Of a stretch of DNA of 64,000 bases, positions 5,593 to 46,393 are shown piece after piece. The translations under genes and the position numbers were made by a program. The stretch's first letter is position 1; each line of letters starts with the position of its first letter. Source of the stretch: an uncultured bacterium (GTDB lineage Bacteria; Patescibacteriota; Minisyncoccia; Phycocordibacterales; PALSA-1337). The notes below the pieces were generated by a model. It searched no databases and had not been told where the DNA came from. It saw only the letters and a list, made by a program, of their open reading frames with translations. The DNA lies in contig CAWKEA010000005.1 of the NCBI GenBank assembly GCA_963848635.1, positions 352,585 to 416,584 of the forward strand. The letters are read 5' to 3'.

Positions 5593-5648
5593 GTCTTCCG
5601 GTTAACCTGCCGTGTTCTCGAACATGGCGCAAAAAAGAAAGGAGTCGT

Positions 5649-6803: not shown

Positions 6804-8111
6804 TTATTGCTCCTGAATAGATGAAGGAACCACATCTATCTCTACAGTATTACTGGTAATAGCTGAAGAAGCTTCTGCTGGTTTACCAATTAGATCATTA
6901 ACAAGCGACATAAAGAAACCTGCACGACTAGAAGAGTTTGAACATATCATATTAACCTTATAAATACCACTCGAAGTATAACTGAAATTTGTTAATCCGA
7001 TATTAGTAATCAAGACGAGAGATTGTGACCAACTTGATGGAGTCCAGTCAACTGGTGAAACAACTTTGCCACTGCAAGTCATACCACTCGGCCATGAGTA
7101 AGCGACAGTAGCACTGCCTCCAGTGTGAATAGTAGTCTTTGTAGTACAGCTCCCCAATGTCCCATTGGTATTAAAGCTCGATACACAATTAGCATCAGTC
7201 GCGGAAGACGTATGGACAAACAAGACCGGGGCGTTTGCGGCTGGGGCGACCGGAGTTAAGGCCGGGATGGTGACGCTACCGCAAGAGATGCCGCTGACGG
7301 TCGCATGAGTCGGGGTTGCGCTGTCTGTCACACTTCCCGTGACGGATATGGTCTGTTGATAAGAGCTTGCCGATTCCGCATATGGTCCGAGATTCTGCGA
7401 TTGAGCTGTGGAACCATTACTCCATGAATAGGTATATGGGCCAGTGCCGCCGTTAGGAGCGAGCAAGACATTGATATTGGCGTTGGTGCCCGAAGAACTG
7501 ACAGAGCTCAAACACGAGGCGGTCAAAGAAGTCGAGGTGCCCTGAGCTGGATTTGGTCCGACCGTGACGGCCGACGAAGAGCTCGTATTGAATTGCAACC
7601 AACCGACCACAGTGCTTCCCCAGGCATAGCCGATGAATTGGCCATTTGACGGCACGAATGTAACGCCGTTGTTTCCCTGAGTATCCCCTGTCAGATGGTT
7701 CGTTCCCGCAAGCTGGATCCAACCGTCCCAACCGTCAGTCCTTGCAGTAGAAGTCGAGCAATCCCCCGCCGCAGATCCAGCGCAGGCACGTGCCCAGCCA
7801 GAGACGGCACCTGTCGACATATTTACGGTCGCGGGACACGAGCCAGTTGGACAGCCCGTCGTGTCGGCGGCATTGAAGGAAACCCAGCCGATATTCGATG
7901 ACCAGGCATAGCCGGAAAGACAGGCGGCAGTCGTCGAACAAGGCGTCGACGTGGACAATTGAACAGTAGCGCCGTCAGCCGGATTGAAGCTCAGCCAACC
8001 GACATTTGGCGACCAAGCATAGCCCGAGAGAGAGGTGGCGGCAGAGGCCGAAGCCGCAGAGAGGAGCGCGACGGCGGAAACGGCCAGAGCGAACGATATT
8101 TTTTTGAGCAT
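6804..8111 (-). CDS. secreted repeat protein with four G-Y-A-W-(S/G)-x-N-(V/I)-G-W-(L/V)-(S/Q)-F-N repeats
   Basis: signal peptide MLKKISFALAVSAVALLSAASASA; repeats SGYAWSPNVGWLSFN, SGYAWSSNIGWVSFN, DGWDGWIQL, IGYAWGSTVVGWLQFN; Ser/Thr-rich C-terminal half. Confidence 0.55.
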   Translation of the reverse strand: MLKKISFALAVSAVALLSAASASAATSLSGYAWSPNVGWLSFNPADGATVQLSTSTPCSTTAACLSGYAWSSNIGWVSFNAADTTGCPTGSCPATVNMSTGAVSGWARACAGSAAGDCSTSTARTDGWDGWIQLAGTNHLTGDTQGNNGVTFVPSNGQFIGYAWGSTVVGWLQFNTSSSSAVTVGPNPAQGTSTSLTASCLSSVSSSGTNANINVLLAPNGGTGPYTYSWSNGSTAQSQNLGPYAESASSYQQTISVTGSVTDSATPTHATVSGISCGSVTIPALTPVAPAANAPVLFVHTSSATDANCVSSFNTNGTLGSCTTKTTIHTGGSATVAYSWPSGMTCSGKVVSPVDWTPSSWSQSLVLITNIGLTNFSYTSSGIYKVNMICSNSSSRAGFFMSLVNDLIGKPAEASSAITSNTVEIDVVPSSIQEQ

Positions 8112-8443: not shown

Positions 8444-9904
8444 TTATTTTCCCTTCCCTTTTTCCTTCTTTTCCTTTAACTGGAGGCCGAGCTCGTCGAG
8501 CTGTTTTGGAGATATCTCGGCTGGCGCTTTCATCATGAGGTCCTTGCCTTCGCCGTTCTTTGGGAAAGCGATGACTTCGCGGATGTTCGGCTCGTTCTCG
8601 AGGAGCATGACGGTGCGGTCGATGCCGGGAGCAAAGCCGCCGTGCGGAGGCGTGCCGTAGGTGAAGGCTTCGAGCATGTGGCCGAAGCGGGCCTTTTGGT
8701 CTTCGGACGAAATATTGAGATATTCGAAAACTTTTTGTTGCATCGCCGCCTGGTGGATACGGATCGAACCAGAGCTGAGCTCATAGCCGTTCAAAACAAG
8801 GTCATACGAGTTGGCGCGCACCGAAAAGATATCCTTGCCGGTCATGAATTTTTCGGTGTCTTCCTCCTTGATCGAGCAGAATGGATGATGCGCCGCCTGA
8901 ATGTTCCCTTCCTTATCCTTTTCAAACATCGGAAAATCAACGATCCACGCGAAGGCGAGCTCGTCCGGGTCTGCCTTGTCCTTGCGCAAATCAGGCTTGT
9001 CGGAGCCGTATTTTTCCATCGATTCCTTGTAGGTCAAGATAGGAAAAGGGGTCGAGGTGATCTTCTTGTTCGGATAGAGCTTTTGGACTAATTCGATGAA
9101 CATCGCCTCGGTATACGAAAGGACGTCCTCGCGCGTGACGAACGACATCTCGAAGTCGAGCTGGGTGAATTCAGGCTGGCGGTCGCCGCGGCTGTCCTCG
9201 TCGCGCATGCAACGAGCGATTTGGAAGTACTTCTCGAAGCCCGCAACCATGAGGAGCTGTTTGAATTGCTGAGGCGATTGCGGCAGAACATAGAATTTGC
9301 CGTTCTCGAGGCGGGACGGCACGACATATTCACGCGATCCCTCAGGTGTGCCTTTCATCAAAATAGGCGTCTCGATCTCGACGAAATCATGCTTGTGCAT
9401 GTATTCCCTGAAAAAAGTGATGATCTTGTCGCGATTGCGGATGTTTTTTTGCATCCTTGTGCGGCGCAGGTCGAGGTACCGGTATTGGAGGCGCAGTTCT
9501 TCATTGAAATCCACTCCGTCGCCTTTGATATCAATCGGTGGCGTAACAGCCGAGTTGAGGACTTTTATTTCGAGCATCTCGAGCTCAACAGCGCCATTCG
9601 CATCGTTTTTATTCACTGTTTTTGGAGGTCTCTCATTTACTTTTCCTTTTACCTCAACAACCCATTCGGATCTGAGGGACGAAGCGACAACCCCGACCTC
9701 CTTGTGATTCGGCAAAGCGACTGCCTGGACGCGGCCGGTCATGTCGCGAAGGTCCAAAAAGATGAGCTTGCCCATGTCGCGGCGCACGTCGACCCAGCCT
9801 TTGATAATGATCTCCTTGCCAATATTAGCAGGGATGTCTTTGATATATGTTCGGTTCATGGGACGTATCGTAGCATGAATAAACCTTAAATTAAAGTAAG
9901 ACAA
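8444..9904 (-). CDS. aspS: aspartate--tRNA ligase, short form lacking the bacterial GAD insertion
   Basis: N-terminal OB fold; FYVLPQSPQQFKQLLMVAGFEKYFQIARCMRDEDSRGDRQPEFTQLDFE class II motif 2 region; C-terminal GTPPHGGFAPGIDRTVM motif 3; 486 aa. Confidence 0.85.
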   Translation of the reverse strand: MSYFNLRFIHATIRPMNRTYIKDIPANIGKEIIIKGWVDVRRDMGKLIFLDLRDMTGRVQAVALPNHKEVGVVASSLRSEWVVEVKGKVNERPPKTVNKNDANGAVELEMLEIKVLNSAVTPPIDIKGDGVDFNEELRLQYRYLDLRRTRMQKNIRNRDKIITFFREYMHKHDFVEIETPILMKGTPEGSREYVVPSRLENGKFYVLPQSPQQFKQLLMVAGFEKYFQIARCMRDEDSRGDRQPEFTQLDFEMSFVTREDVLSYTEAMFIELVQKLYPNKKITSTPFPILTYKESMEKYGSDKPDLRKDKADPDELAFAWIVDFPMFEKDKEGNIQAAHHPFCSIKEEDTEKFMTGKDIFSVRANSYDLVLNGYELSSGSIRIHQAAMQQKVFEYLNISSEDQKARFGHMLEAFTYGTPPHGGFAPGIDRTVMLLENEPNIREVIAFPKNGEGKDLMMKAPAEISPKQLDELGLQLKEKKEKGKGK

Positions 9905-9947
9905 AAAAACCCTGCTGGTCCTGCTCGGTCATGGCTCCCTCGAGCGC

Positions 9948-11546
9948 TTATGCCGCAGGCAATTCGACGATGAATTTTGAGCCTTTGCCTTCGCCCGCTG
10001 ATTCGGCCCAGACGCGGCCATGGTGGGCGTTGACGATCTCGCGCACGATGAAAAGTCCGAGGCCAGTGCCGTGGATGTTCTGCTTGTTGGCATTATCGGC
10101 ACGGGAGAATTTCTGGAAAAGCTTCGGCATGACCAGGGGCGCGATGCCGATGCCGGTATCCGTGACGCTGAATCGTATAGGTATGGTGCCGTCCTTGTTC
10201 GGCACGCGCCCGAGAGCGACCGCAAGTGAGCCCGACGGCGTATATTTGACCGAATTGTCTATGATATTGGCAACGACTTGCTTTAGCTTGTCAGGATCGG
10301 CCGAGACCGTCCATGGGCCTTCGCCGATCGTTTTGAAATCGAATTTCAAGCCTGCTTTATCGATATTCGGCTTCAATTCTGCCACGACATCGCTGACGAG
10401 CGTCTTCATGTCGAGCGGCTCAAGTTCGTATTTCATACTGCCGAGCTCGATGCGGGAGACGTTCAAATAATCGTCGACGACCGACGTCATCGTTTTCGCC
10501 GATTCGAACATGCGCGACACTGCATCGCTCACTTTCCCGGAAACCTCTCCGAGGTCGCCTTCGACGATGAGCGAGGCGTAGCCTTTCATGGCTGTGAGCG
10601 GCGCGCGCAACTGGTGGCTGGCGAACGAGATGAACTCCGTCTTCTGGACATCGAGCTCGCGCAGGCGGTCGTTGGCTTTTTGGAAGTCGATAGTTAATTT
10701 TTCAGCTTTTTCTCGAGATTCTACTTCTTTGATGACACTCCTTATGAGAAAGATGCCGAGCAGGACTGACAAAAGGAAGATGCCTGTATCAAAGACTATC
10801 TCCAGCATATCGTTCGCAAAAAAGATCCTGATCACTAAAACGATCCAAATGAACAGTGTTAAGATCTGCGTTAGGATGTTCTTTGAATTGAGAAACTTTT
10901 GCCAAAATATGAGATAAAATATGGCAAGAATACAAGGAAATATCATTACATTCGCCAATGGCAAGACCTCGATCCCAAATACCGGAAGATACGACGAGCA
11001 ACCCCCGATGAATGCCACGGTAAAGATAACGAATAGATATCGGATCCTCATTCTCTCTGAAGGGTCGCTCGATGAGATGTATTTTTTGAACAGAAGATAT
11101 ATCGAATATGCCGACATGATCACGAACAGTACGATAAAGCTCGTAAAGATATCGGACCTGCCGATATAGTAAAAAGAATTGAATGCGTATCTCACATTGG
11201 TGACGTACAGATTGGTAAAGACATCGAAATACAGGTAGATCCCTCCCGAAAGATATACGAGCGCCAATATCGCTTTTTGGCGTATCTTGAGATACTCGAC
11301 GATGAAGTTGAAGAAAAATACCGGTATGAGGATCACGCCGATTTCTGCCACTTTCCACCAAAATAGCGCATCGGGTTCCAAGGTCGATGTCGCGATCTTG
11401 TAAATGCCAAAGCCCCAGAACGCGACGGCAAGCGAGAAAGCGCTCCAGATGTAATGCTCCAGCTTCTTGCCGCTGATGATGCCATACAGGCCGAGCATCG
11501 TCGAAGAGAATAATATTATCAATCCCACTATTGCGAAAGAGTTCAT
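9948..11546 (-). CDS. sensor histidine kinase (polytopic membrane sensor, HisKA, HATPase_c)
   Basis: six or more TM segments; H-box FASHQLRAPLTAMKGY; C-terminal G1/G2 boxes GTGLGLFIV; start overlaps stop of upstream ORF by 4 nt (ATGA). Confidence 0.8.
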   Translation of the reverse strand: MNSFAIVGLIILFSSTMLGLYGIISGKKLEHYIWSAFSLAVAFWGFGIYKIATSTLEPDALFWWKVAEIGVILIPVFFFNFIVEYLKIRQKAILALVYLSGGIYLYFDVFTNLYVTNVRYAFNSFYYIGRSDIFTSFIVLFVIMSAYSIYLLFKKYISSSDPSERMRIRYLFVIFTVAFIGGCSSYLPVFGIEVLPLANVMIFPCILAIFYLIFWQKFLNSKNILTQILTLFIWIVLVIRIFFANDMLEIVFDTGIFLLSVLLGIFLIRSVIKEVESREKAEKLTIDFQKANDRLRELDVQKTEFISFASHQLRAPLTAMKGYASLIVEGDLGEVSGKVSDAVSRMFESAKTMTSVVDDYLNVSRIELGSMKYELEPLDMKTLVSDVVAELKPNIDKAGLKFDFKTIGEGPWTVSADPDKLKQVVANIIDNSVKYTPSGSLAVALGRVPNKDGTIPIRFSVTDTGIGIAPLVMPKLFQKFSRADNANKQNIHGTGLGLFIVREIVNAHHGRVWAESAGEGKGSKFIVELPAA

Positions 11547-12706
11547 GTGGTGATATGGAAGCCGTCCTCGGGCACTTTGGTTATTATATTGCCTCTACCC
11601 TGCGATATCTTTGTGCCGTTCGGTATCTCCCGCCCAGGCGCGACAACACAGCCACCACCGAGATACACGTCGTCACCGAGACAGCAGCCTAGGAATGTAG
11701 AGCCGGTATCGATTTTTTTCCCTTTATCTATGACAGTAATATTTTTGTGATCAAACCGAAAATCGGTGAGAACTGCCCCTGACCCGACAAAACACCTCTC
11801 GCCAACAAGGCTCGCAGATAAAAAATGTGTCACTGAAAAAACCTCAGACATGAAGACCGACTGTAGGATGTGTCCGTTTAATATGACACATTTGTCGCCT
11901 ATCACTGATGATTCGACGGTAACCGAATTTCCTAAGATTGAATCATTTCCTATCACAGAGTGCCTTACGACGGTATTCGCTCCAATAATCACATTATCTC
12001 CAATGATTGATCCTTCGACGTACGCTGTATGGTGTATATCGCAATTCTTTCCAATCGTATTCATCGTGCTCAAAATTTTCCATTTGTTGCGCGACATTTT
12101 TGTGACGGCAGACAAGAACAAACGTATTTTCTTGTTCTCCTCGACTTCTTTGAGGTGCGACAAGATATTAATTAAATTTGCTGACCACAGATTTGACCAA
12201 TGATGCATCTCAACAATCATTCTCGTGTCATAAGGCGCAACATATTTACCATCGATACACATATGCTCAGGAAAGACGAGAGTTTGTGTCGAGACATCTA
12301 GATCAAACAAAATGGGCTGAACCTCCTGTCGAGATAATGGACGGACATATGAGAGACCGTATTGTATGTGCCCACCCACATCTCTTGAGTTTTGCGTCGC
12401 AACAATCGTTTTTGCAGTATAGTTCCCTTTTTTGACAGTGCATATGGTGCTTGTAGCCATATTTTTTGAACGATCAGTGAACTCTTTGAAAAGTGCTTTG
12501 GTTAAGAAAACACTGCCGTCAAGAATAATATGATCATTCAGATCATCGATCTGTGATATCGATTCCTTTCGCTCATATTGAAAACCAAGCGACATCGCAC
12601 AAGCAATTTGATGATCAAGGATTGACAGGTTTCCAACCATAACATCAGCTGCCGATCTTCCAAACGGGCTGATTTTGTTGCTGTTTGTGATAATGTAAAC
12701 TTTCAT
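11543..12706 (-). CDS. left-handed beta-helix (hexapeptide repeat) protein, putative sugar-nucleotide or acyl transferase
   Basis: C-terminal half rich in [LIV]-G-x-x-x-x hexapeptide repeats (IGDNVIIGANTVVRHSVIGNDSILGNSVTVESSVIGDKCVI); N-terminal domain not confidently assigned. Confidence 0.45.
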   Translation of the reverse strand: MKVYIITNSNKISPFGRSAADVMVGNLSILDHQIACAMSLGFQYERKESISQIDDLNDHIILDGSVFLTKALFKEFTDRSKNMATSTICTVKKGNYTAKTIVATQNSRDVGGHIQYGLSYVRPLSRQEVQPILFDLDVSTQTLVFPEHMCIDGKYVAPYDTRMIVEMHHWSNLWSANLINILSHLKEVEENKKIRLFLSAVTKMSRNKWKILSTMNTIGKNCDIHHTAYVEGSIIGDNVIIGANTVVRHSVIGNDSILGNSVTVESSVIGDKCVILNGHILQSVFMSEVFSVTHFLSASLVGERCFVGSGAVLTDFRFDHKNITVIDKGKKIDTGSTFLGCCLGDDVYLGGGCVVAPGREIPNGTKISQGRGNIITKVPEDGFHITT

Positions 12707-12796
12707 GATTGAAACTGAGCGTCATAATTTATTGATAACTCAATAATCGATCAAGGCGTTCCCCTCATATCAGTCCTCATTAGTATATCATTTATA

Positions 12797-13951
12797 TCAC
12801 AGATTGGTTGTGACTTTAGAATCGATTTCGAATCTTTTTTTAAATGAGTTAACCAATTCGTATATATAACTATCACTAAAATCAAAATATGTATCAGTAT
12901 CGACACCAATAACGCTCTTGACATTGCTTTGATCATACGACGCATGTTTGAGCATGTACCACTTGAAATATTTAATCTTTCTCGCCACAGATCTGAGAGG
13001 TTTTATGCATGAACCGCAAAAGATGAACAATGATAAATAAGGCAGTGCAAGAAATCTTGGAACACCAATAACTGGGATTTTTATGGCAAGTGCCTGAAAA
13101 GTCTGTTTGAGAATATCTCCTACAAAAAAGGGCTTCGGATTGGTTATGTGAAATATCTTTCGCGAAGATTTTTGACTTTTTGATATTTCAAGCATCAATC
13201 GTACTGCAATATCTATTGGCATAAGATTCAGTAAGGAATTTGAACAATAAATAACAGGAATGGGTAGTAAAATATTTTTTTTATCAGAAAGATTCATTGA
13301 CTTCCTCAAGTATATAAGACTTTGGACAAAAGAGTAGTACCCAAAATTGCTTATCCGTTCAACATTGTGATCTATTAATATACTCAATCTGAATATCACA
13401 GCGTCGACGTCTGCGGTATTTTGTACAAGCAATTCTGCGTCGTATTTACTTTCCTCATAGGGGTTGTTAAAGATAGCAGGTCTTTCTCCTATTTTTTCAA
13501 ATTCAAGCCCTGAACTTCGCCCGTGGACATATGCAGTGCTCATGTAATATAAGCGACATTTGAAATGTCGTGCTACAGCAAGCATCGATTTTGCTCCGCC
13601 GATATTAGTTTTGAAAACCCGTTCCTTATTTTCAGTTTTAAAACTCAAGTCAGCCGCCAGATGCCATATTCCATCGATATTACCGATCGGTATGACTGAT
13701 TTCAAAAGCTCTTCTGGATCAGACGATATATCAGCCTCAATATATTTTATACGTCCAGGAATATAGTCGCCAATATTTTTTGAAATTCTGTTTTCCAAAG
13801 AAACTCCATTTTTCGATCTGCCAAGAAAAATAATAGTATTCCCTTCCGCTAAAAGTTTTTTTGAAAGATATGATCCAAGAAAGCCTGTCCCCCCTGTTAA
13901 TAAATAAGTTTTCACTCTTAAATAATAACAAATACGAATGAATGCGGCCAT
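12797..13951 (-). CDS. SDR-family NAD(P)-binding protein, thioester-reductase/male-sterility (NAD_binding_4)-like, with hydrophobic C-terminal extension
   Basis: LLTGGTGFLGSYL Rossmann motif; YxxxK-type region (YEESKYDAE); likely start at Met7 of the listed ORF. Confidence 0.55.
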   Translation of the reverse strand: MAAFIRICYYLRVKTYLLTGGTGFLGSYLSKKLLAEGNTIIFLGRSKNGVSLENRISKNIGDYIPGRIKYIEADISSDPEELLKSVIPIGNIDGIWHLAADLSFKTENKERVFKTNIGGAKSMLAVARHFKCRLYYMSTAYVHGRSSGLEFEKIGERPAIFNNPYEESKYDAELLVQNTADVDAVIFRLSILIDHNVERISNFGYYSFVQSLIYLRKSMNLSDKKNILLPIPVIYCSNSLLNLMPIDIAVRLMLEISKSQKSSRKIFHITNPKPFFVGDILKQTFQALAIKIPVIGVPRFLALPYLSLFIFCGSCIKPLRSVARKIKYFKWYMLKHASYDQSNVKSVIGVDTDTYFDFSDSYIYELVNSFKKRFEIDSKVTTNL

Positions 13952-14088
13952 TGGTGTTTTGTGTTTCATCTTACAGATCGAAATAAGTAAAAACAGATGA
14001 GTCTTTTATCTAATTCTATACATAACTAAAAAACATTCTCATTTCGTTATTATTTATGACTCTGGAAAGTATTCAATAAGGTGTATAA

Positions 14089-15774
14089 TTGCAGATTATG
14101 GATATATCCATATATTCGACGATTATCTGGATAACAGCAATAACTATAGCTAGTCTTGATCTAGTTATAATTATAGGAAGTAAGAGTTTGTCATCTTGGA
14201 CATTTGCACTACTAAGTTTTATTACAGCAGTGTGGGTGACTTCTCAGGGATTTTTTGTCTCTATATCTGACCCTGCATTAGCAAATTTACTCATTCGTTT
14301 GCAATATGTTTTAGGTCTATCAATAGCTATTGGTTTCTACCAATTTTCAATTATCTACCCTCACAATAAAAAAATCCGTCTAATATCAATAATATTAACG
14401 TTAAGTATAATTGCCTGCTTTTCTTACTTATATATATTTACTGATCTATTTATTATAAGTATTTATCGAAATGGGAGTATCGCTCGTTGGGCATGGAATT
14501 TTGGAAATCTACATTTGCTTTTTGACTTAGTTTTTTGCTCGCTTTGGATCAATGCATTATGGCGACTATATTTTACTTATCGAGAATCAGAAGGTATTTT
14601 AAAAATAAATCTTAGAACCATGTTCTTTGGATTATTACTTGGAATAATTCCACCTACACTCGCAAATATAATATTGCCCACATTAGGATACTACGAATTC
14701 AATTGGATTGGTCCAATTACGAGCGCCATTTGGATTTTAATCATTGGTTATTCAGTTGTTCGTTATCGCCAAATGAATGTTCGCACAGTCATCACAGAAG
14801 TCTTAGCGATCGCTATAACATCGATATTCTTTATAAACATATTTATTGGAGTAAATCCAAATATAGCATTACGTATATTTATATTCTGTGTATTTATTAT
14901 ATTGGCCTATTACCTCATAAAAATATCCCTGCGCGAATCACGCCAAAAAGAGCAATTATCCGACCTCAACCTCCACCTCTCGCAAAAAGTGGCGGAGCAG
15001 ACAGCGGACATACAGCGCGCGTATGAAGCGGAAAAGAAAGCTCGTCGCGATCTGGAAAAGCTCAATGACAGCAAGAACCAATTCATCATGATCACCCAGC
15101 ATCACTTGCGCGCGCCGACGACGACCATCGACCGGGAGTTGGAAGCCATGCAGAGCGGCGCTTGCGGTGAGATCACACCGGAGCAAAGAACATCCATCCG
15201 GAATGCGCGCTCGGCTTCACAGCGGCTCTCGCACATCATCGACGACTTTCTCAAGATCGCCGCCTTGAAGCCTGGCGGGAGCATGTTGAACTTGTCGCGG
15301 CAGAGCCTCTTGCCGGCCATCGATGACATCCTCGACGAGCTCAAATTGGACCTTGCCAGACTGCACATCAGCGTGAATTATTCGCGCGACGCCACCGATT
15401 GGCTAGAGCTTTCCGTCGATTTCACCAAGATGCGCGAGATCCTCCTTATCGTCATGGAAAACGCCGTCAAATACAACTGCGACCGCGGATCGATCGACGT
15501 CACCACGCGCACGCACACAGGTATGTTCGAGATTTCGATAAAGAATTCCGGCATCGGCATCACCCGCGAAGAAGCCGAAAAGATCGGTTCCGCCGTCTGT
15601 TATCGCGGTAACTGCGCGCGCTCGCAGAACCCGACCGGCATGGGCATCGGCCTCTCGGTGGTAAAAGCGATCGTCCGCGCGCATCACGGAACATTTTCGA
15701 TCGCTTCTCGTGGCAAGGGAAAAGGCGCACTTGTGGTCATTTCCCTGCCCTTGAAACAGACGTTTGGGGAGTGA
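14089..15774 (+). CDS. sensor histidine kinase (multi-TM sensor, HisKA, HATPase_c)
   Basis: roughly 270 aa polytopic N-terminus; coiled coil; H-box ITQHHLRAPTTTIDRE; C-terminal GMGIGLSVVKAIVRAHHGTF. Confidence 0.75.
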   Translation: MQIMDISIYSTIIWITAITIASLDLVIIIGSKSLSSWTFALLSFITAVWVTSQGFFVSISDPALANLLIRLQYVLGLSIAIGFYQFSIIYPHNKKIRLISIILTLSIIACFSYLYIFTDLFIISIYRNGSIARWAWNFGNLHLLFDLVFCSLWINALWRLYFTYRESEGILKINLRTMFFGLLLGIIPPTLANIILPTLGYYEFNWIGPITSAIWILIIGYSVVRYRQMNVRTVITEVLAIAITSIFFINIFIGVNPNIALRIFIFCVFIILAYYLIKISLRESRQKEQLSDLNLHLSQKVAEQTADIQRAYEAEKKARRDLEKLNDSKNQFIMITQHHLRAPTTTIDRELEAMQSGACGEITPEQRTSIRNARSASQRLSHIIDDFLKIAALKPGGSMLNLSRQSLLPAIDDILDELKLDLARLHISVNYSRDATDWLELSVDFTKMREILLIVMENAVKYNCDRGSIDVTTRTHTGMFEISIKNSGIGITREEAEKIGSAVCYRGNCARSQNPTGMGIGLSVVKAIVRAHHGTFSIASRGKGKGALVVISLPLKQTFGE

Positions 15775-15779
15775 ACAAG
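15709..15779 (+). repeat. direct repeat copy A (histidine-kinase 3' terminus)
   Basis: about 85% identical to 18552..18622 (encodes RGKGKGALVVISLPLKQTFGE-stop). Confidence 0.7.
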
Positions 15780-15803
15780 TCGCGGCCATCCTCAATTTTT
15801 ATA

Positions 15804-16514
15804 TCATTTTAAAATCAATTCTAAATTTGACTCATTTATATCGTTCAATGAATGTGCCATCGGAAGTCTGTAAACTATTGGAGAATATTTTTTAACTAAA
15901 AAATCAATCTCAGTTGGCGGTATTACATTGTCTTGTAAACCAATAACAACAGTTAAATCACTACTTTCCGTCGGATATTTAACGCTTTTCAATTCCTTTA
16001 TTATTTTTGATACATTAAGTCGATAAACATTAGGATAGCCCCTATAGAGAAACTGAAATGTATGTTCCAAGTCTTCTCCACTGCCGCCAGCTGTATGATA
16101 TGCCATATTTACAAAAGGGCACACTAATATTTTCTTTGCATTGCTTTTAGACAGTAAAACTGGTAAAGCTCCAAAACTAAAACCAATTAAATAAACCGGT
16201 AAATTACTTTGCCACAACACTTCAGACGTATTAAAAGATTCGGTGGCTTTACCTAATTTAATTATTTCTAGTGTCTGATCAATTGTTTTGATGCAATTTT
16301 TAAGAGAAAAGTTACCATCACTCTCCCAACTACCAATATATCTTGGAGTAAAGATGTTATATCCCATTTCAGAGAACTTTTTTATAACAGAATGGTGCTT
16401 ATCAATATATTGTGGCAAACCAGGAGAAATGATGACATTCCCCTTATTGCCATTAAGCCATAGACCAATCAGTGTGTTTTTAAACTTAATCCTTAATTCC
16501 ATAATATTGACCAA
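15804..16514 (-). CDS. alpha/beta hydrolase fold protein
   Basis: GFSFGA nucleophile elbow; 236 aa; start overlaps the upstream ORF by 29 nt. Confidence 0.5.
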   Translation of the reverse strand: MVNIMELRIKFKNTLIGLWLNGNKGNVIISPGLPQYIDKHHSVIKKFSEMGYNIFTPRYIGSWESDGNFSLKNCIKTIDQTLEIIKLGKATESFNTSEVLWQSNLPVYLIGFSFGALPVLLSKSNAKKILVCPFVNMAYHTAGGSGEDLEHTFQFLYRGYPNVYRLNVSKIIKELKSVKYPTESSDLTVVIGLQDNVIPPTEIDFLVKKYSPIVYRLPMAHSLNDINESNLELILK

Positions 16515-17730
16515 AATATAAAAATCTTAACTCATTCAAAAAAGACTTCTCATTTGGATGAATAGATCTATTTGGTAATTTATTTTCTAATAATTTTATT
16601 ATCATAACCATTTTATCATAAGCTATACCATAATAAAAATTATTTATAGCTTCAAGTAATTCCTTTTTAAGCTCTACAAAGCTAGCGGATAAAGGCGAAA
16701 ATAGCTCATATTTTAAAATAGTATCTATTCTCTCTCTTAATATCTCCTGCTCCTTAAGACTATTTTTAATAGTTTCAAAATTAATAATGACATCTTTTGA
16801 AACATTTCTTTTAAGGAAAAAAGATCGCAGATAACTTGGGGACAGTTCATTGAATAAGTTTGTCACCTCTTCGATATTGTTTTGCCACTTAAATTTTCTA
16901 CCATATTTATCAAGAAGAACACCATGACACACAATGTTAGTAGGAAGAAATTTGCTTGGCAAATGACATAAAGAATAATAGCTGAATTTCTTTATTATAT
17001 CACCATGAAAATATATTCTTTTAGAATACGTGCCTTGAACAAGGGCCGGAGTAAGCATAACTATGAAGCGAGGATCCAAACTATAACCATCATACGTAAT
17101 CGTATATTCTCTATTCTTAGTAAGACAGATATTATATTTTTCAGGCATCAGGTTACAAAATGTGACCAATTCTTTTTTAGCTCCAATTGGATAGATTTTT
17201 ATTCTTGATATTGTTTCCAGAATTTCATTTTTTGATATTTTTTGGTAGATAACGTTTTGATCTTTCATATCAACACTTCCGCCACATATTTTACACAAGG
17301 TAATCGTTACGTCTGTACCAAAATCAGAATTACATTTATTGCAAGTCGCAATTGGGATTGATCCTTTTATAATATTTGACTTGCAATGCATATTAACGAA
17401 ATCGGAAAGAATTGTGCTTATTTTATCATCTCTGATTTGTTCGTCAAAATCTATACAATATTTTTTTAATGCTTTAACGCCTTCTTGTATGCATTTATCA
17501 ACGAATTCTTCTCTCGTAGTTTTCGAGACAATTATGTTTTCCCTTTGCATCATTTTCAAAACTGGTAACCCATTTACATTCCAAAGCAATGGGAGACAAA
17601 CTTTTATATCCTGGAAGCGTCGTGATTTTACATAAAAATCCATCAGGATTAAATCGTAAATATTGCCCGGACTCAGTACTTTTTTCACTTGTACTGGAGC
17701 CATTATGACTATTTCATTTTCTAGTTCCAT
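16486..17730 (-). CDS. methionyl-tRNA synthetase catalytic-core paralog with degenerate HIGH and KMSKS motifs (predicted pseudo-aaRS)
   Basis: colinear with the MetRS core: N-terminal block IVIMAPVQVKKVLSPGNIYDLILMDFYVKSRRFQDIKVCLPLLWNVNGLP versus [51 protein letters not shown] (HIGH replaced by PGNIY); zinc knuckle CNKCNS...CKICGG; YFHGDIIKKFSYYSLCHLP versus HFIGKDIVYFHSLFWPAML; KMSKS replaced by KFKWQ; C-terminal anticodon-binding region truncated. Confidence 0.55.
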   Translation of the reverse strand: MELENEIVIMAPVQVKKVLSPGNIYDLILMDFYVKSRRFQDIKVCLPLLWNVNGLPVLKMMQRENIIVSKTTREEFVDKCIQEGVKALKKYCIDFDEQIRDDKISTILSDFVNMHCKSNIIKGSIPIATCNKCNSDFGTDVTITLCKICGGSVDMKDQNVIYQKISKNEILETISRIKIYPIGAKKELVTFCNLMPEKYNICLTKNREYTITYDGYSLDPRFIVMLTPALVQGTYSKRIYFHGDIIKKFSYYSLCHLPSKFLPTNIVCHGVLLDKYGRKFKWQNNIEEVTNLFNELSPSYLRSFFLKRNVSKDVIINFETIKNSLKEQEILRERIDTILKYELFSPLSASFVELKKELLEAINNFYYGIAYDKMVMIIKLLENKLPNRSIHPNEKSFLNELRFLYFGQYYGIKD

Positions 17731-18547
17731 ATATTTTTCTGTATTCTTTAGTTATGGACAACTGCAATTCAGAAAGAAAATTATATGCCATACTAAGACC
17801 TGACATTGTAATGTCATTAGTATGTTCAGATTTGTATTCCAAAAATATGCTTGGATCAATTTTCTGAGGAAACATCTTATGAAAAGTCTGCGAAGCTTCT
17901 TTTCTTGTTTCTGGATATATCTTCCAAAATGCTAGATAATACATGACACCATAAATGCACCATTTCATCATTGTGATTCGTTTTTTTGCATTCAGATCAC
18001 TGTTTACGAGCAGCTTCCGAGCTTGATACGTCAAGGAGCTAATAACTCTTACCACTTCAAGACGCAGATCATCGAGATTAATGTTTTTATTTTCAAATGA
18101 ATTTTTTCCAATCAATTGTCTACCATACATAGACAACTCAATCTGCATGTATAAAGATCTGTTGTTATGCCAAAAAGTTTCTTTTCTTCTCTTGGGCGTT
18201 TCATTATACGTATGAACATTAAAATCTAAATCAAAACCACTCGAATCGTATTTTTCTTTGATTTTCCTTAATATTTTTAATGATTCATTGTCAGCGATTT
18301 TGAGAACTATTAGTATGTCTATATCACTTAGAAAGCAATAATCATCAGACAATGAGCTTCCGTAAACAACAGCGCTTACAATATTTTCTTTCAACAACTT
18401 TTTAAGATGAATTTTTATCGGCAATAATATATTCTCCCTCTCTTCTAAACTATGCATATTAGTATTATACATATAAAAATCTAACTTGCTATTTGCACAA
18501 TCAACAAGCACATTTTCAATTTTTAAGACATTTCCTTTTTTGATCAT
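17714..18547 (-). CDS. Pol-beta superfamily nucleotidyltransferase with C-terminal helical domain (AadA/ANT-like architecture)
   Basis: VVYGSSLSDDYCFLSDIDILIV matches the hG[GS]x9-13Dh[DE]h NTase motif; likely start at MIKKGN (18547), since the listed ORF start overlaps the kinase 3' remnant. Confidence 0.55.
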   Translation of the reverse strand: MIKKGNVLKIENVLVDCANSKLDFYMYNTNMHSLEERENILLPIKIHLKKLLKENIVSAVVYGSSLSDDYCFLSDIDILIVLKIADNESLKILRKIKEKYDSSGFDLDFNVHTYNETPKRRKETFWHNNRSLYMQIELSMYGRQLIGKNSFENKNINLDDLRLEVVRVISSLTYQARKLLVNSDLNAKKRITMMKWCIYGVMYYLAFWKIYPETRKEASQTFHKMFPQKIDPSIFLEYKSEHTNDITMSGLSMAYNFLSELQLSITKEYRKIYGTRK

Positions 18548-18551
18548 GTCA

Positions 18552-18617
18552 CGTGGCAAGAAAAAAGGCGCGCTCACGACCATTTCCCTGCCCTTGAAAC
18601 AGGCGTTTGAGGAGTGA
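18552..18617 (+). pseudogene. histidine kinase 3' terminal remnant (direct repeat copy B)
   Basis: encodes RGKKKGALTTISLPLKQAFEE-stop, about 85% nt identity to the 3' end of the kinase gene at 15709..15779; no upstream kinase ORF. Confidence 0.6.
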
Positions 18618-18649
18618 GGACAAGAGAAAAGATACTCAAAACCGATTCC

Positions 18650-19102
18650 TTATAGGATCTCTTTTAACCCCGCCCTCTTCCTCCTCTTGTTGAGCTGAGA
18701 CGGGTCTTTTACTGGCCGAAGAACAGGTTTATTGTTTTTACCAAGTTTACCAGTGAACTGCGTGCCGTATAATTGTTTTTTGCCTTCATTCAGCAAAATC
18801 CTGTCTTCCAAATGTGCGGCATTCGATGGAGAGAAAACACACTTCTTGAAGCACTGCTTTTGAAGCGCCACATCTTGATCTTGGTGCTGTATAAGCAGCC
18901 AGAATTTATGCATATCCTTCACGCCTACATTCTTTGTGGTGGGGTATCCATGCTCACGTATCAACTCCTTTATTCTGTAGTTATGATAGCCGTCACAGAG
19001 ATACACCATATAGTTGAAAATACCGGCGCTTCCCTTCTGGGATTCTTGCATCTTTTTTTTCAGCGTGAAATCGCAAGGCTTGGTCGACCTGGTACATTTC
19101 AC
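18650..19102 (-). CDS. hypothetical protein, paralog of 3261..3737
   Basis: shares GTQ(F/Y) and (L/I)(R/L)PV(K/D) and RR...GLKE blocks with ORF 3261..3737. Confidence 0.4.
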   Translation of the reverse strand: MKCTRSTKPCDFTLKKKMQESQKGSAGIFNYMVYLCDGYHNYRIKELIREHGYPTTKNVGVKDMHKFWLLIQHQDQDVALQKQCFKKCVFSPSNAAHLEDRILLNEGKKQLYGTQFTGKLGKNNKPVLRPVKDPSQLNKRRKRAGLKEIL

Positions 19103-19237
19103 TGATTATATTCGATATGATTTTTGATTTCATGATATTAAAGTTAATTTGTCGATATTACCTTACCCCCCCATTTCATTTTAATAAAAATTATGCTATC
19201 AATTCACCAGACAATAAAGTAAATCTATCTAAATACT

Positions 19238-19630
19238 ATGACACATCGACAATTCGCCCTATTCCTATGCGGCCTGGTCGCGCCATCGCTCTACCAGCGC
19301 ATCAAATTCGCCCTTCATCGCAGATCATTCTATACCACACGACTTCGCGATATAAGCGGCCTCAATCTCCATCACGGCCATTGGGGGCTCCTATTCGTGT
19401 TCGTTTCGACATGGATGCTCGCCTTTGGCCTACACAGCATCGTCTCGATTGGCCTCGCGGGATTTGGCTGGGGGCTCATCCTCGACGAGATCGTGCCCCT
19501 CCTCAAGATGCCTTCTCCCGGCCGGGACATCGAGCTCGACGTCTATGCGCGATCGAGGAATGCGACTTTCGTCTTTATTTCGATAGTCATCATTCTTTCG
19601 ATCGTCATATTTGCTAACTTCTGCCGATAG
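19238..19630 (+). CDS. integral membrane protein, unknown function
   Basis: 130 aa with 3-4 hydrophobic helices; followed by a terminator. Confidence 0.4.
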   Translation: MTHRQFALFLCGLVAPSLYQRIKFALHRRSFYTTRLRDISGLNLHHGHWGLLFVFVSTWMLAFGLHSIVSIGLAGFGWGLILDEIVPLLKMPSPGRDIELDVYARSRNATFVFISIVIILSIVIFANFCR

Positions 19631-19649
19631 CACTTGCTTTCAATTCAAA

Positions 19650-19674
19650 GCACCGGAATGCCGGTGCTTTTTCT
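19650..19674 (+). terminator. rho-independent terminator
   Basis: GCACCGGAATGCCGGTGC hairpin followed by TTTTTC. Confidence 0.65.
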
Positions 19675-19684
19675 TATCCCTTTC

Positions 19685-20311
19685 TTATCCCTTGTCGCAT
19701 AATCCGACGATAGTATCGTAGAACAATGTCGTGGTCGCTTCTGGTAGCGCATCATAGCTCACATGGATTGGCTCCCCGACATGTATGGTTAGCCTCCTGC
19801 GCAAAAGACCCCTTTGACCGAGATGCACCGAAATTGGCAAAACTGGAGCGCCAGTTTGCGAAGCCAGCACTGCCGCACCAAGCTTGAAAGGAGCGACTTC
19901 GTGCTCGGACACGATCTTGCCTTCAGGATAGATGACGATGTTCTCGCCCTCGCTGATGAGCCGCTTTGCTTCCTCGAGATTCTTTTGCAGGCCTTGGCCG
20001 GGCACGACGATAAAAACGCCAAAAAGGCTATAAATAAAGGATATCACACCGATTTCAGAGAGAAAATTGAGCCACTTCCAATCAAACCTGTTTACGGCCA
20101 TGAATCGCAGGGGCAAGTGAGGCGTAGAAAAGCCGAGTATGAGGCGAAAGATGAAGCTGTCCGCAAAGCTGAAATGATTGGCGATGATGATGAACGGCCT
20201 GTTTACTTTTTTCAGATTCTCCCGATCGTTGATTTTGAGGCGAAAAAAGATATTAAAGTATGCATACGAGATGGGCCATGTCAGAAATTGCGAAACTTTC
20301 AATAGTTTCAT
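19685..20311 (-). CDS. plsC: 1-acyl-sn-glycerol-3-phosphate acyltransferase family protein
   Basis: HxxxxD acyltransferase motif IIIANHFSFADSF and IVIYPEGK motif. Confidence 0.75.
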   Translation of the reverse strand: MKLLKVSQFLTWPISYAYFNIFFRLKINDRENLKKVNRPFIIIANHFSFADSFIFRLILGFSTPHLPLRFMAVNRFDWKWLNFLSEIGVISFIYSLFGVFIVVPGQGLQKNLEEAKRLISEGENIVIYPEGKIVSEHEVAPFKLGAAVLASQTGAPVLPISVHLGQRGLLRRRLTIHVGEPIHVSYDALPEATTTLFYDTIVGLCDKG

Positions 20312-20368
20312 GATATTTTAGCGTATATCGAATGATACACCCGAATTTGTCCTGCGTACAGAGCGATT

Positions 20369-20959
20369 TTACTGCTTCTTTGCTTTTTCTACCGGAGCAT
20401 CGATGACTGCATTTTCTTTCTTGAGAGGAAAACCGAGGTATTCGAGAAGAGCGAGAGTATGATTCTTGTCTTTTGACGTCGTGACGATAGTAGCGGCAAG
20501 ACCAAAGACGTCTTTGAGGTCTTCATCTGCCGTCTCCGGGAAAATAGTGTGCTCTTTTATGCCGAGAGTATAATTGCCCATTTCATCGACAGTGCGAGTA
20601 AGCCCACGGAAGTCCTTGGTGCGCGGCAGTGCGATATGCACGAGGCGATCGAGAAAATCATACATCCTGGTTCCTCGCAATGTGATCTGATAGGCCAGAG
20701 GGTCTCCGGTGCGCGTCTTGTAGGTGGCGATCGATTTTTTGGCAGTGCGGGTGGCAGGCTTTTGGCCGGTTATGCGCGAAAGGCGCTCGGCAATGAGCTC
20801 TATCTTTCTCTTGTCTTTGGTCGAGCCGAAGCCGACGTTGACGACCACTTTTTCTATGCGCGGAGTCTGCATGGCGTTCTTGATATGCAAAGATTCCTTC
20901 AGGCTCGTGAAGGCATGGCCGGCTTTTTCTTTCATTGTTTCAAAAGTTTCTTTTTTCAT
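20369..20959 (-). CDS. rplE: 50S ribosomal protein L5
   Basis: MQTPRIEKVVVNVGFG and overall colinearity with uL5. Confidence 0.85.
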   Translation of the reverse strand: MKKETFETMKEKAGHAFTSLKESLHIKNAMQTPRIEKVVVNVGFGSTKDKRKIELIAERLSRITGQKPATRTAKKSIATYKTRTGDPLAYQITLRGTRMYDFLDRLVHIALPRTKDFRGLTRTVDEMGNYTLGIKEHTIFPETADEDLKDVFGLAATIVTTSKDKNHTLALLEYLGFPLKKENAVIDAPVEKAKKQ

Positions 20960-21040: not shown

Positions 21041-21271
21041 TTTTTTCTTTAAATTCTCGACATTGGCGACATTCGACGCCTGGAGCGGCATGGCCCGCTC
21101 GACTACCTGGCCCTTCTGGCCCTCTTTCCTTGCGCGTTCGTGCTTTTTGTACATGTTTACGCCTTCAACAAGGACTTTATTCTCTCTTGGGTATGCCTTC
21201 AAGACTTTTCCTGTCTTGCCCTTGTCCTTGCCGGTCAATATTTTTACGGTGTCTCCTTTTTTGATATGCAT
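21038..21271 (-). CDS. rplX: 50S ribosomal protein L24
   Basis: MHIKKGDTVKILTGKDKGKTGKVL KOW motif. Confidence 0.85.
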   Translation of the reverse strand: MHIKKGDTVKILTGKDKGKTGKVLKAYPRENKVLVEGVNMYKKHERARKEGQKGQVVERAMPLQASNVANVENLKKK

Positions 21272-21275
21272 GGTA

Positions 21276-21379
21276 TTAATTTAACTCAAAATGCAAAACG
21301 CAAAACCGAAATGCGGCGATATTTGTATTTGCTTTTGAATTTAAGTTTTGCATTTTGATTTTTGAGTTTTGCATTTGAT
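21276..21379. repeat. family-1 intergenic hairpin repeat (arms ACTCAAAATGCAAAACGCAAAAC / GTTTTGCATTTTGATTTTTGAGTTTTGCATTT; conserved loop GAAATGC...TATTTGT.TTTGAATT)
   Basis: long imperfect inverted repeat filling the rplX-rplN spacer; homologous copies at 22768..22870 and 23527..23640. Confidence 0.8.
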
Positions 21380-21751
21380 TTACACTATTTCAGACGCCTT
21401 CGACGCGATTGTCTGAAAGCCCTTTTCCTGGAGCTCTCGCGGTATCGGGCCAAAGATACGTCCGGCGATCGGCTCTTTTTTGCCTTTTTCGATGATGACA
21501 ACCGCATTCTCGTCAAAGCGTATATATGATCCGTCCAAGCGGCGGAACGCCTTTGTCTGGCGGACGACGACTGCCTGGAGGACGTCTTTCTTTTTGACGG
21601 CTTTGCGCGGCTCGGCCTTTTGGACCGATAGGACGACCATCTCGCCGATCTCGGCATAGCGCTTCTTTGACGAGCCGAGCACCTTGAAGACGCGGCCTAT
21701 CTTTGCGCCACAGTTGTCGGTTATTTTTACAATTGTGCGTGGTTGGATCAT
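21380..21751 (-). CDS. rplN: 50S ribosomal protein L14
   Basis: MIQPRTIVKITDNCGAKIGRVFKVLGSSKKRYAEIGEMVVLSV. Confidence 0.9.
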   Translation of the reverse strand: MIQPRTIVKITDNCGAKIGRVFKVLGSSKKRYAEIGEMVVLSVQKAEPRKAVKKKDVLQAVVVRQTKAFRRLDGSYIRFDENAVVIIEKGKKEPIAGRIFGPIPRELQEKGFQTIASKASEIV

Positions 21752-22330: not shown

Positions 22331-22762
22331 TTATGCAAGCTCTCTCGATACGATCTTTGTTTTGACCGAGATCTTCGTCCCAGCCTTGCGGAGGGCTTCA
22401 ACCGATTCTTTGTCGCCGACTCCGTCGATCTCAAAAAGGATGCGCCCCGGCTTGATCTCCGCCACGAAGCCGACCGGCTCACCTTTTCCCTTGCCGAGCT
22501 TCACTTCAGGAGGCTTTTGGGTGTACGGCCTGTCTGGGAAAATACGGACCCATACTTTGCCCGCTTTGGTCGCGTAACGGCTCATGACTTTCCTGGCGGC
22601 CTCGATCTCGTTCGACGTGATGCGGCCGAATTTAGTAGCCTTCAATCCATACGAACCGAAAGCGAGCGCGATACCGCGAGTCTCGACGCACGTGTCGAGC
22701 TTTTTCTGGTTCCTGCGACCAGTGTGCCACTTTCTGAATTTTACTTTTTTAGGGAATAGCAT
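22331..22762 (-). CDS. rplP: 50S ribosomal protein L16
   Basis: [16 protein letters not shown]; start taken at MLFPKK rather than the upstream in-frame Met. Confidence 0.9.
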
Positions 22763-22767
22763 GGTAG

Positions 22768-22870
22768 TAAATTTAAAATGCAAAACTCAAAACGCAAAAC
22801 TGAAATGCTGCAATGCACGTATTTGTCTTTGAATTATGCTTTTGCATTTTGAGTTTTGACTTTTGAGTTA
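22768..22870. repeat. family-1 intergenic hairpin repeat; right arm encodes the C-terminal tail of rpsC
   Basis: AAAATGCAAAACTCAAAACGCAAAAC ... GCTTTTGCATTTTGAGTTTTGACTTTTGAG; rpsC stop codon lies inside the element (gaaTTAtgc) and 22837..22866 encode ...VKTQNAKA. Confidence 0.8.
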
Positions 22871-23526: not shown

Positions 23527-23640
23527 AATTAAAGTTAAAACTCAAAACGCAAAGTTCAAAACTAAATGCGCTATCAGAATTATTGTATTTTGAATTAAAG
23601 TTTTGCATTTTGAGTTTTGAGCTTTGAGTTTGCTTTCTCG
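23527..23640. repeat. family-1 intergenic hairpin repeat; right arm encodes the C-terminal tail of rplV
   Basis: AAAACTCAAAACGCAAAGTTCAAAAC ... AGTTTTGCATTTTGAGTTTTGAGCTTTGAGTTTGC; rplV stop at 23595 inside the element; tail ...KANSKLKTQNAKL. Confidence 0.8.
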
Positions 23641-36356: not shown

Positions 36357-36365
36357 CTGTATTTC

Positions 36366-46389: not shown

Positions 46390-46393
46390 TTTA

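Follow-up and report, generated by a model that had tools for sequence, protein, structure and literature searches.

How did three AT-rich genes that encode no recombinase come to lie between two copies of the 3' end of a histidine kinase gene? The question is raised by a stretch of 64,000 nucleotides from an uncultured bacterium of the Patescibacteria (contig CAWKEA010000005.1), referred to here as the window, in which an intact sensor histidine kinase gene is followed by a cassette enclosed by imperfect direct repeats of the kinase terminus (R1 and R2). An earlier note on this DNA had taken the arrangement for the scar of an insertion or recombination that marks the cassette as acquired or mobile, and this view was supported by the finding of an empty site, a foreign base composition, other genomic contexts of the same cassette and a recurring repeat layout. 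R1 and R2 are, on balance, probably attL/attR-like junctions (left and right attachment sites) of a homology-dependent insertion of a horizontally acquired cassette behind the kinase. The features on which this reading depends are the following.

14098..15774, plus strand: sensor histidine kinase, intact, with 7TM sensor, HisKA and HATPase_c (open reading frame (ORF), Pfam).
15694..15774, plus strand: R1, the last 26 codons and the stop of the functional kinase.
15804..16514, minus strand: cassette gene 3, alpha/beta-hydrolase-like, 232-236 amino acids (aa) (family alignment).
16486..17730, minus strand: cassette gene 2, predicted class-I aminoacyl-tRNA-synthetase paralogue with the fold of methionyl-tRNA synthetase (MetRS), 414 aa (profiles, structure model).
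17714..18457, minus strand: cassette gene 1, Pol-beta-superfamily nucleotidyltransferase (NTase), ANT/MNT-like (Pfam, alignment).
18537..18617, plus strand: R2, an orphan in-frame kinase 3' terminus that adjoins the upstream (promoter) side of the cassette.

A repeat search returned R1 (15694-15774) and R2 (18537-18617) as a direct repeat of 81 nucleotides (nt) with 81% identity and a spacing of 2843, and the identical register was obtained in a MAFFT alignment. By direct count, 66 of the 81 positions match, and the 66-nt core (15709-15774 against 18552-18617) is 85% identical (56/66), the value that the earlier note had given. The locus of the repeat had also been placed correctly, but not its extent, since the similarity begins 15 nt further upstream and the TGA of R2 ends at 18617 instead of 18622. 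BLAST stretched the pair to 15694-15779 against 18537-18624, with a 2-nt indel past the stop. In a self-BLAST of the 64-kb window the pair was the sole repeat of a gene 3' end (E = 2e-15), and the next-best ungapped match of the R1 81-mer in the whole window reached 42/81. Repeat search, MAFFT and self-BLAST thus bore out the proposed imperfect direct repeats around the cassette, and a chance origin of the similarity is excluded. R1 and R2 are both in frame and share the position of their TGA stop, before which they read FSIASRGKGKGALVVISLPLKQTFGE and FLIMSRGKKKGALTTISLPLKQAFEE, respectively. When the kinase was searched by tblastn against the window, only residues 533-558 were recovered between 15775 and 18620, at 18537-18614; as had been claimed, no kinase body lies upstream of the second copy, and R2 is an orphan tail and not the end of a longer kinase. 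The differences between the copies are mostly transitions (13 of 15 in the 81 nt and 10 of 10 in the 66-nt core), running in both directions (A/G and C/T), and the longest exact tract is 23 nt.

The locus is not an assembly chimera, because L001, an independent Logan assembly of run ERR10755936, is identical to window positions 9782-20953 (11.2 kb, 0 mismatches); the two copies, moreover, differ from each other at 15 positions. A third, older copy of the repeat was sought beyond the DUF6624 gene that follows R2, and local alignment against 18618-20380 gave nothing above the top shuffled score. A separate 23-nt direct repeat (15787-15809 and 18511-18533; CATYYTCAATTTTTA...CATTT; 78% identical) lies just inside each cassette end, at a distance of 13 nt from R1 and 4 nt from R2, and was only marginally above chance by a rough hand estimate.

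The interval between the copies (15775-18536; 2.76 kb) consists of exactly three overlapping minus-strand genes and no others, in agreement with the three-gene content first described. Its G+C content is 31%, against 47% for the window and 56% for the adjoining kinase half, and the cassette is compositionally foreign. Gene 1 matched the Pfam families Polbeta (1.1e-7) and NTP_transf_2 (9e-7), and also gave weak ANT(9) and MntA matches and a match to the PADLOC candidate family PDC-S09 (2.8e-9). The NTase motif G-S...D-x-D is present, and YGS...SDIDIL is conserved in the family alignment. The ORF of gene 1 extends to 18583; homologues in the loci L005, L006 and L011 begin at its Met43, and the coding region is therefore placed at about 17714-18457, with no overlap with R2. 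Gene 2 gave only weak profile matches (ValRS, MetRS and IleRS). Its AlphaFold2 model (pLDDT 79.8) retrieved MetRS over the whole chain as the top Foldseek match in the PDB (TM 0.66-0.72, E ~1e-15), and a CxxC...CxxC knuckle is present; the model predicts a MetRS-type fold with Rossmann core, zinc knuckle and helical domain. In a HMMER alignment to IleRS, HIGH is replaced by SPGN and KMSKS by KFKWQ, with a Trp that is invariant in the family, and both catalytic signatures of class I synthetases appear from this alignment to have been lost. Only 8 homologues of gene 2 were found among 5.8 billion proteins. Gene 3 showed only weak Pfam hydrolase matches (E ~0.05), and its family alignment, with homologues in L005, L006, L009 and L011, retains GFSxG, an Asp and a C-terminal His in the manner of alpha/beta hydrolases. 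The ATG at 16502 is the probable conserved start. The trio of NTase, MetRS-like protein and hydrolase is a rare module with a predicted function that is possibly tRNA- or nucleotide-directed, and it has been studied by nobody.

No integrase, transposase or reverse transcriptase was found among the three cassette genes in Pfam and further profile searches. A DDE or other transposon was ruled out, as there is no transposase, no terminal inverted repeats were present among the inverted repeats of 13000-20000, and the duplication measures 81 nt, compared with the 2-15 bp typical of such elements. The cassette was likewise searched for in possible vectors, and no match was obtained in IMG/VR viral contigs, PLSDB plasmids or INPHARED phages.

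The kinase homologues bear Patescibacteria, Paceibacterota and Taylorbacteria names, and the closest one found, P0001, is carried by L002 and L003, two assemblies of apparently one sample. Window 9958-15770 aligns with L002 5945-11673 and window 19237-20318 with L002 11828-12997. In L002 and L003, the kinase stop is followed by 150 nt and then by a 130-aa gene, where the window has 3.46 kb (15775-19236); the cassette, R2 and the DUF6624 gene are missing. With this synteny on both sides, L002 and L003 represent the empty site. The earlier note had also considered that relatives might all share the arrangement with no empty site, which is not so, the L002/L003 site being empty; its expectation that the kinase would there be followed directly by the homologue of 18650..19102 failed, the DUF6624 gene also being missing in L002. 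Three genes follow R2 on the right.

18650..19102, minus strand: DUF6624 gene (Pfam DUF6624), of intermediate G+C content (44%), outside the repeat-bracketed unit.
19238..19630, plus strand: 130-aa gene, conserved right flank, syntenic with L002 11828-12997.
19685..20311, minus strand: acyltransferase, conserved right flank, syntenic with L002 11828-12997.

In Paceibacteria the convergent acyltransferase usually comes directly after the kinase (L004, L021, L026, L032, L033, L035, L037 and L054). The gap between the two genes is 0.5-0.7 kb in some genomes, 3.9 kb in the window and 6.3 kb in L017. These comparisons mark the kinase-acyltransferase interval as an insertion hot spot, of which the DUF6624 gene is a second variable gene. 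In L017, an orphan of its own orthologous kinase tail lies 3.67 kb downstream of the kinase (2898-2923 and 6566-6591), with a 26-nt exact match and weaker similarity around it; it reads GEGKGARVRVRLRFA before the stop, and an M42-type peptidase, a HisZ-like gene and HisRS lie between kinase and orphan. The current kinase tail of L017, which belongs to a different species from the window, overlaps the convergent peptidase gene. L019 was tried as the empty site for L017 and rejected, since its acyltransferase lies upstream of the kinase. A 414-aa gene downstream of the acyltransferase in L002 was likewise tried as a cassette homologue and ruled out, being unrelated to the cassette protein of that length.

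Wherever context exists, the three cassette genes occur together and in the same order, and at least four other genomic contexts were found. The MetRS-like gene is always paired with the NTase and the hydrolase, and often also with ndk and a NUDIX gene. Repeat bracketing was assessed in each of the three further loci whose flanks are long enough (L005, L010 and L011), and the islands carrying the trio were found to be bracketed in 3/3 by imperfect direct repeats of local sequence, 75-118 nt long, with self-BLAST E-values of 1e-48 to 2.5e-10.

L005: trio after ndk; repeat at 4069-4186 and 7897-8014, 118 nt, 95% identical, the last 39 codons of an ABC-F ATPase gene.
L006, L007 and L008 (equivalent to L010): trio after ndk; repeat at L010 1802-1882 and 5827-5907, 81 nt, 84% identical, non-coding.
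L011 (a contig of 30% G+C): trio between gatB and an M1 aminopeptidase; repeat at 6053-6127 and 9617-9691, 75 nt, 77% identical, the last 24 codons of the aminopeptidase gene.
L009 (the closest relative, 77% DNA identity): trio before the start of an acyltransferase gene.

L011 has the geometry of the window: the orphan lies upstream of the NTase gene, and cassette and intact target gene are convergent. The L011 orphan keeps its frame and stop and lies 74 nt upstream of gatB, where the gene tail would fall in an empty site. The bracketed unit comprises three genes in the window, four in L011, where an aldolase is added, and five in both L005 and L010, the additions being ndk and a NUDIX gene; DNA homology between the L005 and L010 islands stops at 7901, only 4 nt into the right repeat of L005 (start 7897). 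When the repeats of the four loci were compared for a shared core, one 7-mer was common to two loci and no 8-mer was shared. The lack of a common core, together with a unit of three to five genes, argues against a site-specific recombinase with fixed ends. The background rate was determined in 527 kb of Paceibacteria loci for short direct repeats 0.4-12 kb apart (E <= 1e-4) and amounted to about one repeat pair per 30 kb, with pairs bracketing 2-4-kb segments at about one per 60-70 kb. Because background pairs are that sparse, the bracketing of the cassette at 4/4 loci is not due to chance. A second repeat pair in L005 (10627-10768 and 13282-13424) presents the tail of a 173-aa gene twice (142 nt, 76%), with a frameshifted orphan, and brackets a pair of genes for GmrSD (type IV restriction) and an N6/N4 methyltransferase.

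Some further observations concern these loci. L010 holds three copies of ATAAAGTNNGGATAGTGAC (1864-1882, 5889-5907 and 7052-7070), where 0.07 would be expected by chance, and these bound consecutive segments, a 5-gene island and a 2-gene block, like cassette boundaries. Repeated motifs of 20-22 nt with GGAATTGAACTT lie upstream of ndk in L006 (1976-2114 and 289-308; L010 ~1925-2065) and look like a tRNA T-arm in reverse complement; the idea that tRNA fragments serve as att sites in L006 and L010 was rejected, as ARAGORN finds no tRNA there. A near-identical empty allele was sought for L005, the youngest insertion, and the only other contig with the same ABC-F protein was also filled. The public contig L009 ends in an Illumina adapter (2534-2562; AGATCGGAAGAGCACACGTCTGAACTCCA), and its last bases are not genomic.

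The manner in which the repeat copies diverged was evaluated by codon-by-codon comparison of the coding pairs, neutral decay of the orphan being simulated with the same numbers of transitions and transversions. The ratios of synonymous to non-synonymous codon differences were as follows.

L005 ABC-F pair: 6:0 (stop TAA to TGA), P = 1e-4.
L011 pair: 8:6, P = 8e-4.
Second L005 pair: 19:13 (32 differing codons), P < 5e-5.
Window R1/R2: 3:7, P = 0.44.

From the synonymous bias it follows that the copies in the related loci would have diverged as working genes in separate lineages before being joined, and this suggests that, at least in the related loci, one repeat copy came with the cargo from another lineage. 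Indels are absent from four of the five repeat pairs despite 5-23% substitution. With L002 as the outgroup, R1 and R2 share about 11 derived states, as read by eye, and they are 81% identical to each other, compared with 76% and 73% to L002. As they are closer to each other than to L002, they are sisters, and their split is younger than that of the L002 lineage. The idea of paralogous kinase 3' ends in the earlier note thus holds in part: the recombination scar stands, and an old-paralogue origin does not, R1 and R2 being sisters relative to L002.

The kinase itself shows signs of recombination in the half that bears R1. Its product has 558 aa from the ATG at 14098 and is on record in an independent assembly; the orthologue P0001, in the syntenic L002, is 71% identical. 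The GC profile and comparison with relatives delimit one further feature.

14920..15774, plus strand: cytoplasmic half of the kinase, GC-rich (56%).

The G+C content of the gene switches abruptly at about 14900-14920. Third-codon identity between the window and L002 is 0.69 in the C-terminal half of the kinase, 0.41 in the N-terminal half and 0.47-0.56 in five flanking genes. The sample of P0001 also contains a further kinase, P0027, whose sensor half is unrelated (15-37% aa identity) and whose cytoplasmic half shows 80-86% DNA identity to P0001 and the window kinase; its breakpoint near residue 275 coincides with the GC switch. The third-position identity and the half shared by P0027 indicate that the GC-rich 3' half has been exchanged between genes and genomes by homologous recombination, and the mosaicism looks like domain shuffling by this means; the GC-rich half probably served as the homology anchor for the insertion. 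The kinase family as a whole is mosaic (window 14098-15774, L012 3581-5287 and L002 10001-11677), with AT-rich sensor halves that are unrelated or far more diverged. An AT-rich kinase half within one large island was considered and ruled out, since the orthologous genes of L002 show the same composition; for this reason the AT-rich N-terminal half and the AT-rich upstream genes lie outside the acquisition.

In the homology-dependent insertion that we favour, the incoming DNA would have carried the cassette beside a copy of about 80 nt of the kinase 3' terminus from a related Paceibacteria lineage. An exchange between this copy and the resident kinase tail would have placed the cassette after an intact kinase frame and left the other tail copy orphaned on the far side, beside the old downstream DNA. 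The likeliest form would be a single Campbell-type crossover of a circular intermediate, and the same outcome would be reached by a linear fragment joined through homology at one end and illegitimately at the other. Because the cassette encodes no recombinase, host functions would have carried out the exchange, the leading candidate being RecA-type recombination after natural transformation, with the GC-rich, conserved 3' half of the kinase supplying the homology at the hot spot. Natural DNA uptake and integration by homologous recombination have been described in Patescibacteria (PMC10633639). An exchange between R1 and R2 would release a 2,843-bp circle with one hybrid repeat, which could be re-inserted at similar kinase tails; as the crossover of a circle would duplicate exactly the stretch used and excision would regenerate the circle, the arrangement may be self-perpetuating among relatives. 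What is observed comprises the repeat, the empty site, the conservation and differing contexts of the cassette, the recurring repeat layout and the synonymous bias in the related loci; what we infer is a circular intermediate, an enzyme for the exchange and a route of transfer. Recombination between tails is favoured because the repeats are local, the target is intact, the orphan lies with the old downstream DNA and the homology ends at the stop, and also because the repeats are 65-142 nt long, the limits of the cargo vary, no core is shared, no recombinase is present and the divergence is biased towards synonymous sites.

Several observations weigh against this explanation. A repeat of only 81-85% identity, with a longest exact tract of 23 nt, would be a poor RecA substrate. 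Four loci present four different flanks, and the gain of a new gene tail upon a change of target is left unexplained. In no assembly was a circular form, an empty allele or a hybrid junction observed. The relative with the empty site is distant (~74% nt identity) and also lacks the DUF6624 gene, and the inserted unit is not exactly delimited. The synonymous test is uninformative for the window pair, and a conservative null, in which silent change is also allowed in the working copy (expected synonymous fraction ~0.4), weakens the P values of the others, so that the first L005 pair is still significant (~0.004), the second L005 pair is marginal and the L011 pair is not significant. The earlier note had suggested looking for an integrase or recombinase elsewhere in the contig; no integrase Pfam match was found among 20 candidate ORFs elsewhere in the window, a set restricted to size-selected ORFs.

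The last point bears on the explanation that survives best after the favoured one, although we consider it unlikely, namely that the cassette is a decayed or non-autonomous integrative element akin to the cis-mobilisable elements (CIMEs), the kinase tail being used as attB by a tyrosine or serine integrase whose gene lies on a helper element, phage or plasmid, and the attP of the element carrying a mimic of the kinase tail that keeps the gene intact. CIMEs are cis-mobilisable elements without recombination genes, and integrase islands enter the 3' ends of tRNA and protein genes. The locus has the att-like repeats and the lack of recombination genes of a CIME or trans-mobilised island, and the classic integrase-island architecture, in which the 3' end of the target is restored and an orphaned copy is left distally. 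Copies differing at synonymous sites would fit an attP copy from another host, and every repeat pair has an exact tract of 15-26 nt that might be a crossover core. The microcin H47 island shows that an element encoding no recombinase can be moved in trans (PMC3191183). Counting against the trans-integrase reading are the four unrelated repeats at four loci with no shared core, the bracketed content of three to five genes and the absence of the cassette from IMG/VR, PLSDB and INPHARED. Neither an integrase nor a transposase turned up in the four islands that carry the cassette, for which the window genes were scanned and the other loci were assessed from precomputed Pfam listings or by homology to window and L005 proteins, nor was an integrase found among the 20 candidate window ORFs.

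A duplication of the target in place, by staggered breaks about 80 nt apart with fill-in or by template switching, followed by divergence and neutral decay of the orphan, is more doubtful still. It draws on the window pair, in which the changes of the orphan are mostly non-synonymous (3:7, P = 0.44) and fit neutral decay. R1 and R2 are also each other's closest relatives, with the ~11 derived states shared relative to L002, and the repeats match local sequence at every locus. Such a duplication does not predict, however, that three related pairs differ mainly at synonymous sites; four of the five pairs are free of indels at 5-23% substitution, and neither terminal inverted repeats nor a transposase was found. 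To our knowledge, no transposition system produces target duplications of 65-140 bp, which also counts against it.

It is very unlikely that R2 is all that survives of a second paralogous kinase in tandem, the body of which was lost by deletion or overwriting, and that it is unconnected with the arrival of the cassette. Tandem kinase paralogues do occur in the clade (in L023, a 136-nt stretch matches the tail of the upstream paralogue at 76%), and kinases of this family share near-identical 3' halves. The syntenic relative, however, has no second kinase downstream, the sister relationship of R1 and R2 relative to L002 argues against an old paralogue, and the layout recurs with ABC-F and aminopeptidase genes in the absence of tandem paralogues. 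That the cassette's own proteins catalyse the insertion is less probable again, as nothing supports it. R1 and R2 as the template and variable repeats of a diversity-generating retroelement (DGR), a type of element frequent in Patescibacteria that also sets a near-copy of a gene 3' end close by, can be dismissed, since the likeness is limited to a superficial layout (an imperfect copy of a gene 3' end a few kb off), neither a reverse transcriptase nor Avd is present in the interval or its vicinity, the mismatches show no adenine specificity (13/15 transitions, both directions) and the kinase tail is neither a C-type-lectin nor an Ig-like variable domain.

Among known systems, the locus is not assigned to the integrase islands, because their defining integrase was looked for and not found, and it would seem to work most like the microcin H47 island or like Campbell-type insertion-duplication. 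It resembles integrase islands, prophages, integrative and conjugative or mobilisable elements (ICE, IME) and CIMEs in a target kept intact by a replacement 3' end, a distal orphan, repeats that are imperfect outside a core and an empty site in relatives. As in integrase islands, the repeats cover the 3' end of an intact target gene; it is unlike them in that no recombinase was found inside the four cassette-bearing islands, the repeats are unrelated and without a shared core, and no helper element was identified. The H47 island of E. coli is a small island with extensive, imperfect direct repeats at its flanks and with neither an integrase nor an excisionase gene (PMC3191183; follow-up PMC5426353). 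Exchange occurs within identity segments of its repeats, and its mobility depends on host-supplied functions, described as a 'parasitic strategy' (PMC3191183, PMC5426353); its excision and integration were demonstrated by experiment and do not depend on RecA, and a site-specific recombinase acts on it in trans (PMC3191183, PMC5426353). The window cassette shares with it the long imperfect flanking repeats and the lack of a recombinase of its own. The H47 island, however, measures 13 kb, belongs to a proteobacterium and has experimentally established mobility, whereas the islands described here measure 2.8-4 kb, belong to Patescibacteria and are known from sequence alone, and their repeats consist of 3' ends of host genes that differ from one locus to the next.

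Campbell-type insertion-duplication and homology-facilitated illegitimate recombination have been reported in natural transformation (PMC3240628), as have merodiploids (PMC3784515). The likeness to the Campbell type lies in a short homology that directs integration, its duplication on both sides by a single crossover and the lack of an element-encoded enzyme. Campbell-type and illegitimate events are, however, laboratory phenomena, and the homology at the present loci is short (65-142 nt) and diverged (77-95%). Chromosomal turnover hot spots have in common with the locus a variable interval between conserved convergent genes, lineage-specific cargo and signs of recombination in a flanking gene; in the classic case a double crossover in both flanks leaves no duplicated gene tail, whereas here the tail is duplicated. 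We know of no description of Campbell-type insertion as a route taken repeatedly in nature by a single conserved cassette. Among islands, such a repeat scar is in itself nothing unusual; what is notable is that it recurs at four unrelated sites around one rare cassette without a recombinase, that it recurs around other cargo in the clade and that there is evidence for an imported copy.

Other features of the window were also recorded. Intergenic repeats of about 100 nt (CAAAAYGCAAAAC...TTTTGCATTTTGAGTTTTG; 77-80% identical) occur in the ribosomal-protein operon (21268-21384, 22759-22869 and 23530-23636), with related short copies near 50939 and 60129. Palindromic intergenic elements of about 80 nt (GAAGTAGAAAATAGAAG ... 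CTATTTTCTATTTCTAC) lie at 36274-36357, 46307-46390 and 46820-46901, one of them a hairpin with 83% self-complementarity. A 648-nt stretch (4532-5165 against 5757-6400; 66% identical, with 37 nt at 95%) is common to the adjacent plus-strand genes 4283-4717 and 5589-6728, which have no Pfam match and may be a tandem paralogue or a partial duplication. AT-rich islets at 27147-28091, 38249-38881 and 43894-44943 carry DUF3800, Fic/DOC and ORF6N with a nucleoside-deoxyribosyltransferase-like (NDT-like) gene, respectively, and neither flanking direct repeats nor an integrase was found for these three. Near-perfect palindromes of 22, 25 and 30 nt (44032-44053, 44700-44724 and 50405-50434; two exact and one 96%) were also present, two of them inside the ORF6N/NDT-like islet.

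Patescibacteria have tiny genomes with few recognisable mobile elements and much horizontal transfer, and the entry of accessory genes into them is poorly understood. The locus and its relatives offer a testable picture in which short duplicated tails of host genes may act as insertion and excision sites for small recombinase-free cassettes, at hot spots beside conserved, recombining gene segments. We suggest, only tentatively, that within the Paceibacteria group of the Patescibacteria small accessory gene cassettes may be moved by a cycle that is guided by homology and needs no recombinase, and that such cassettes may form a general class of mobile unit. Each unit would carry a 65-140-nt copy of the 3' end of a host gene as an 'address tag', loop out through its repeats, travel as naked DNA and enter by a single crossover behind the orthologue of the next host, which would be left undamaged; the trio at its four sites, the GmrSD and methyltransferase pair in L005 and the HisRS block behind the L017 kinase would, on the same tentative footing, be instances of this cycle. 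If the cycle is general, orphan gene tails would provide a computational signature for mapping recently acquired DNA in Patescibacteria, and the range of repeat lengths, 65-142 nt, would indicate the minimal homology that their recombination system accepts.

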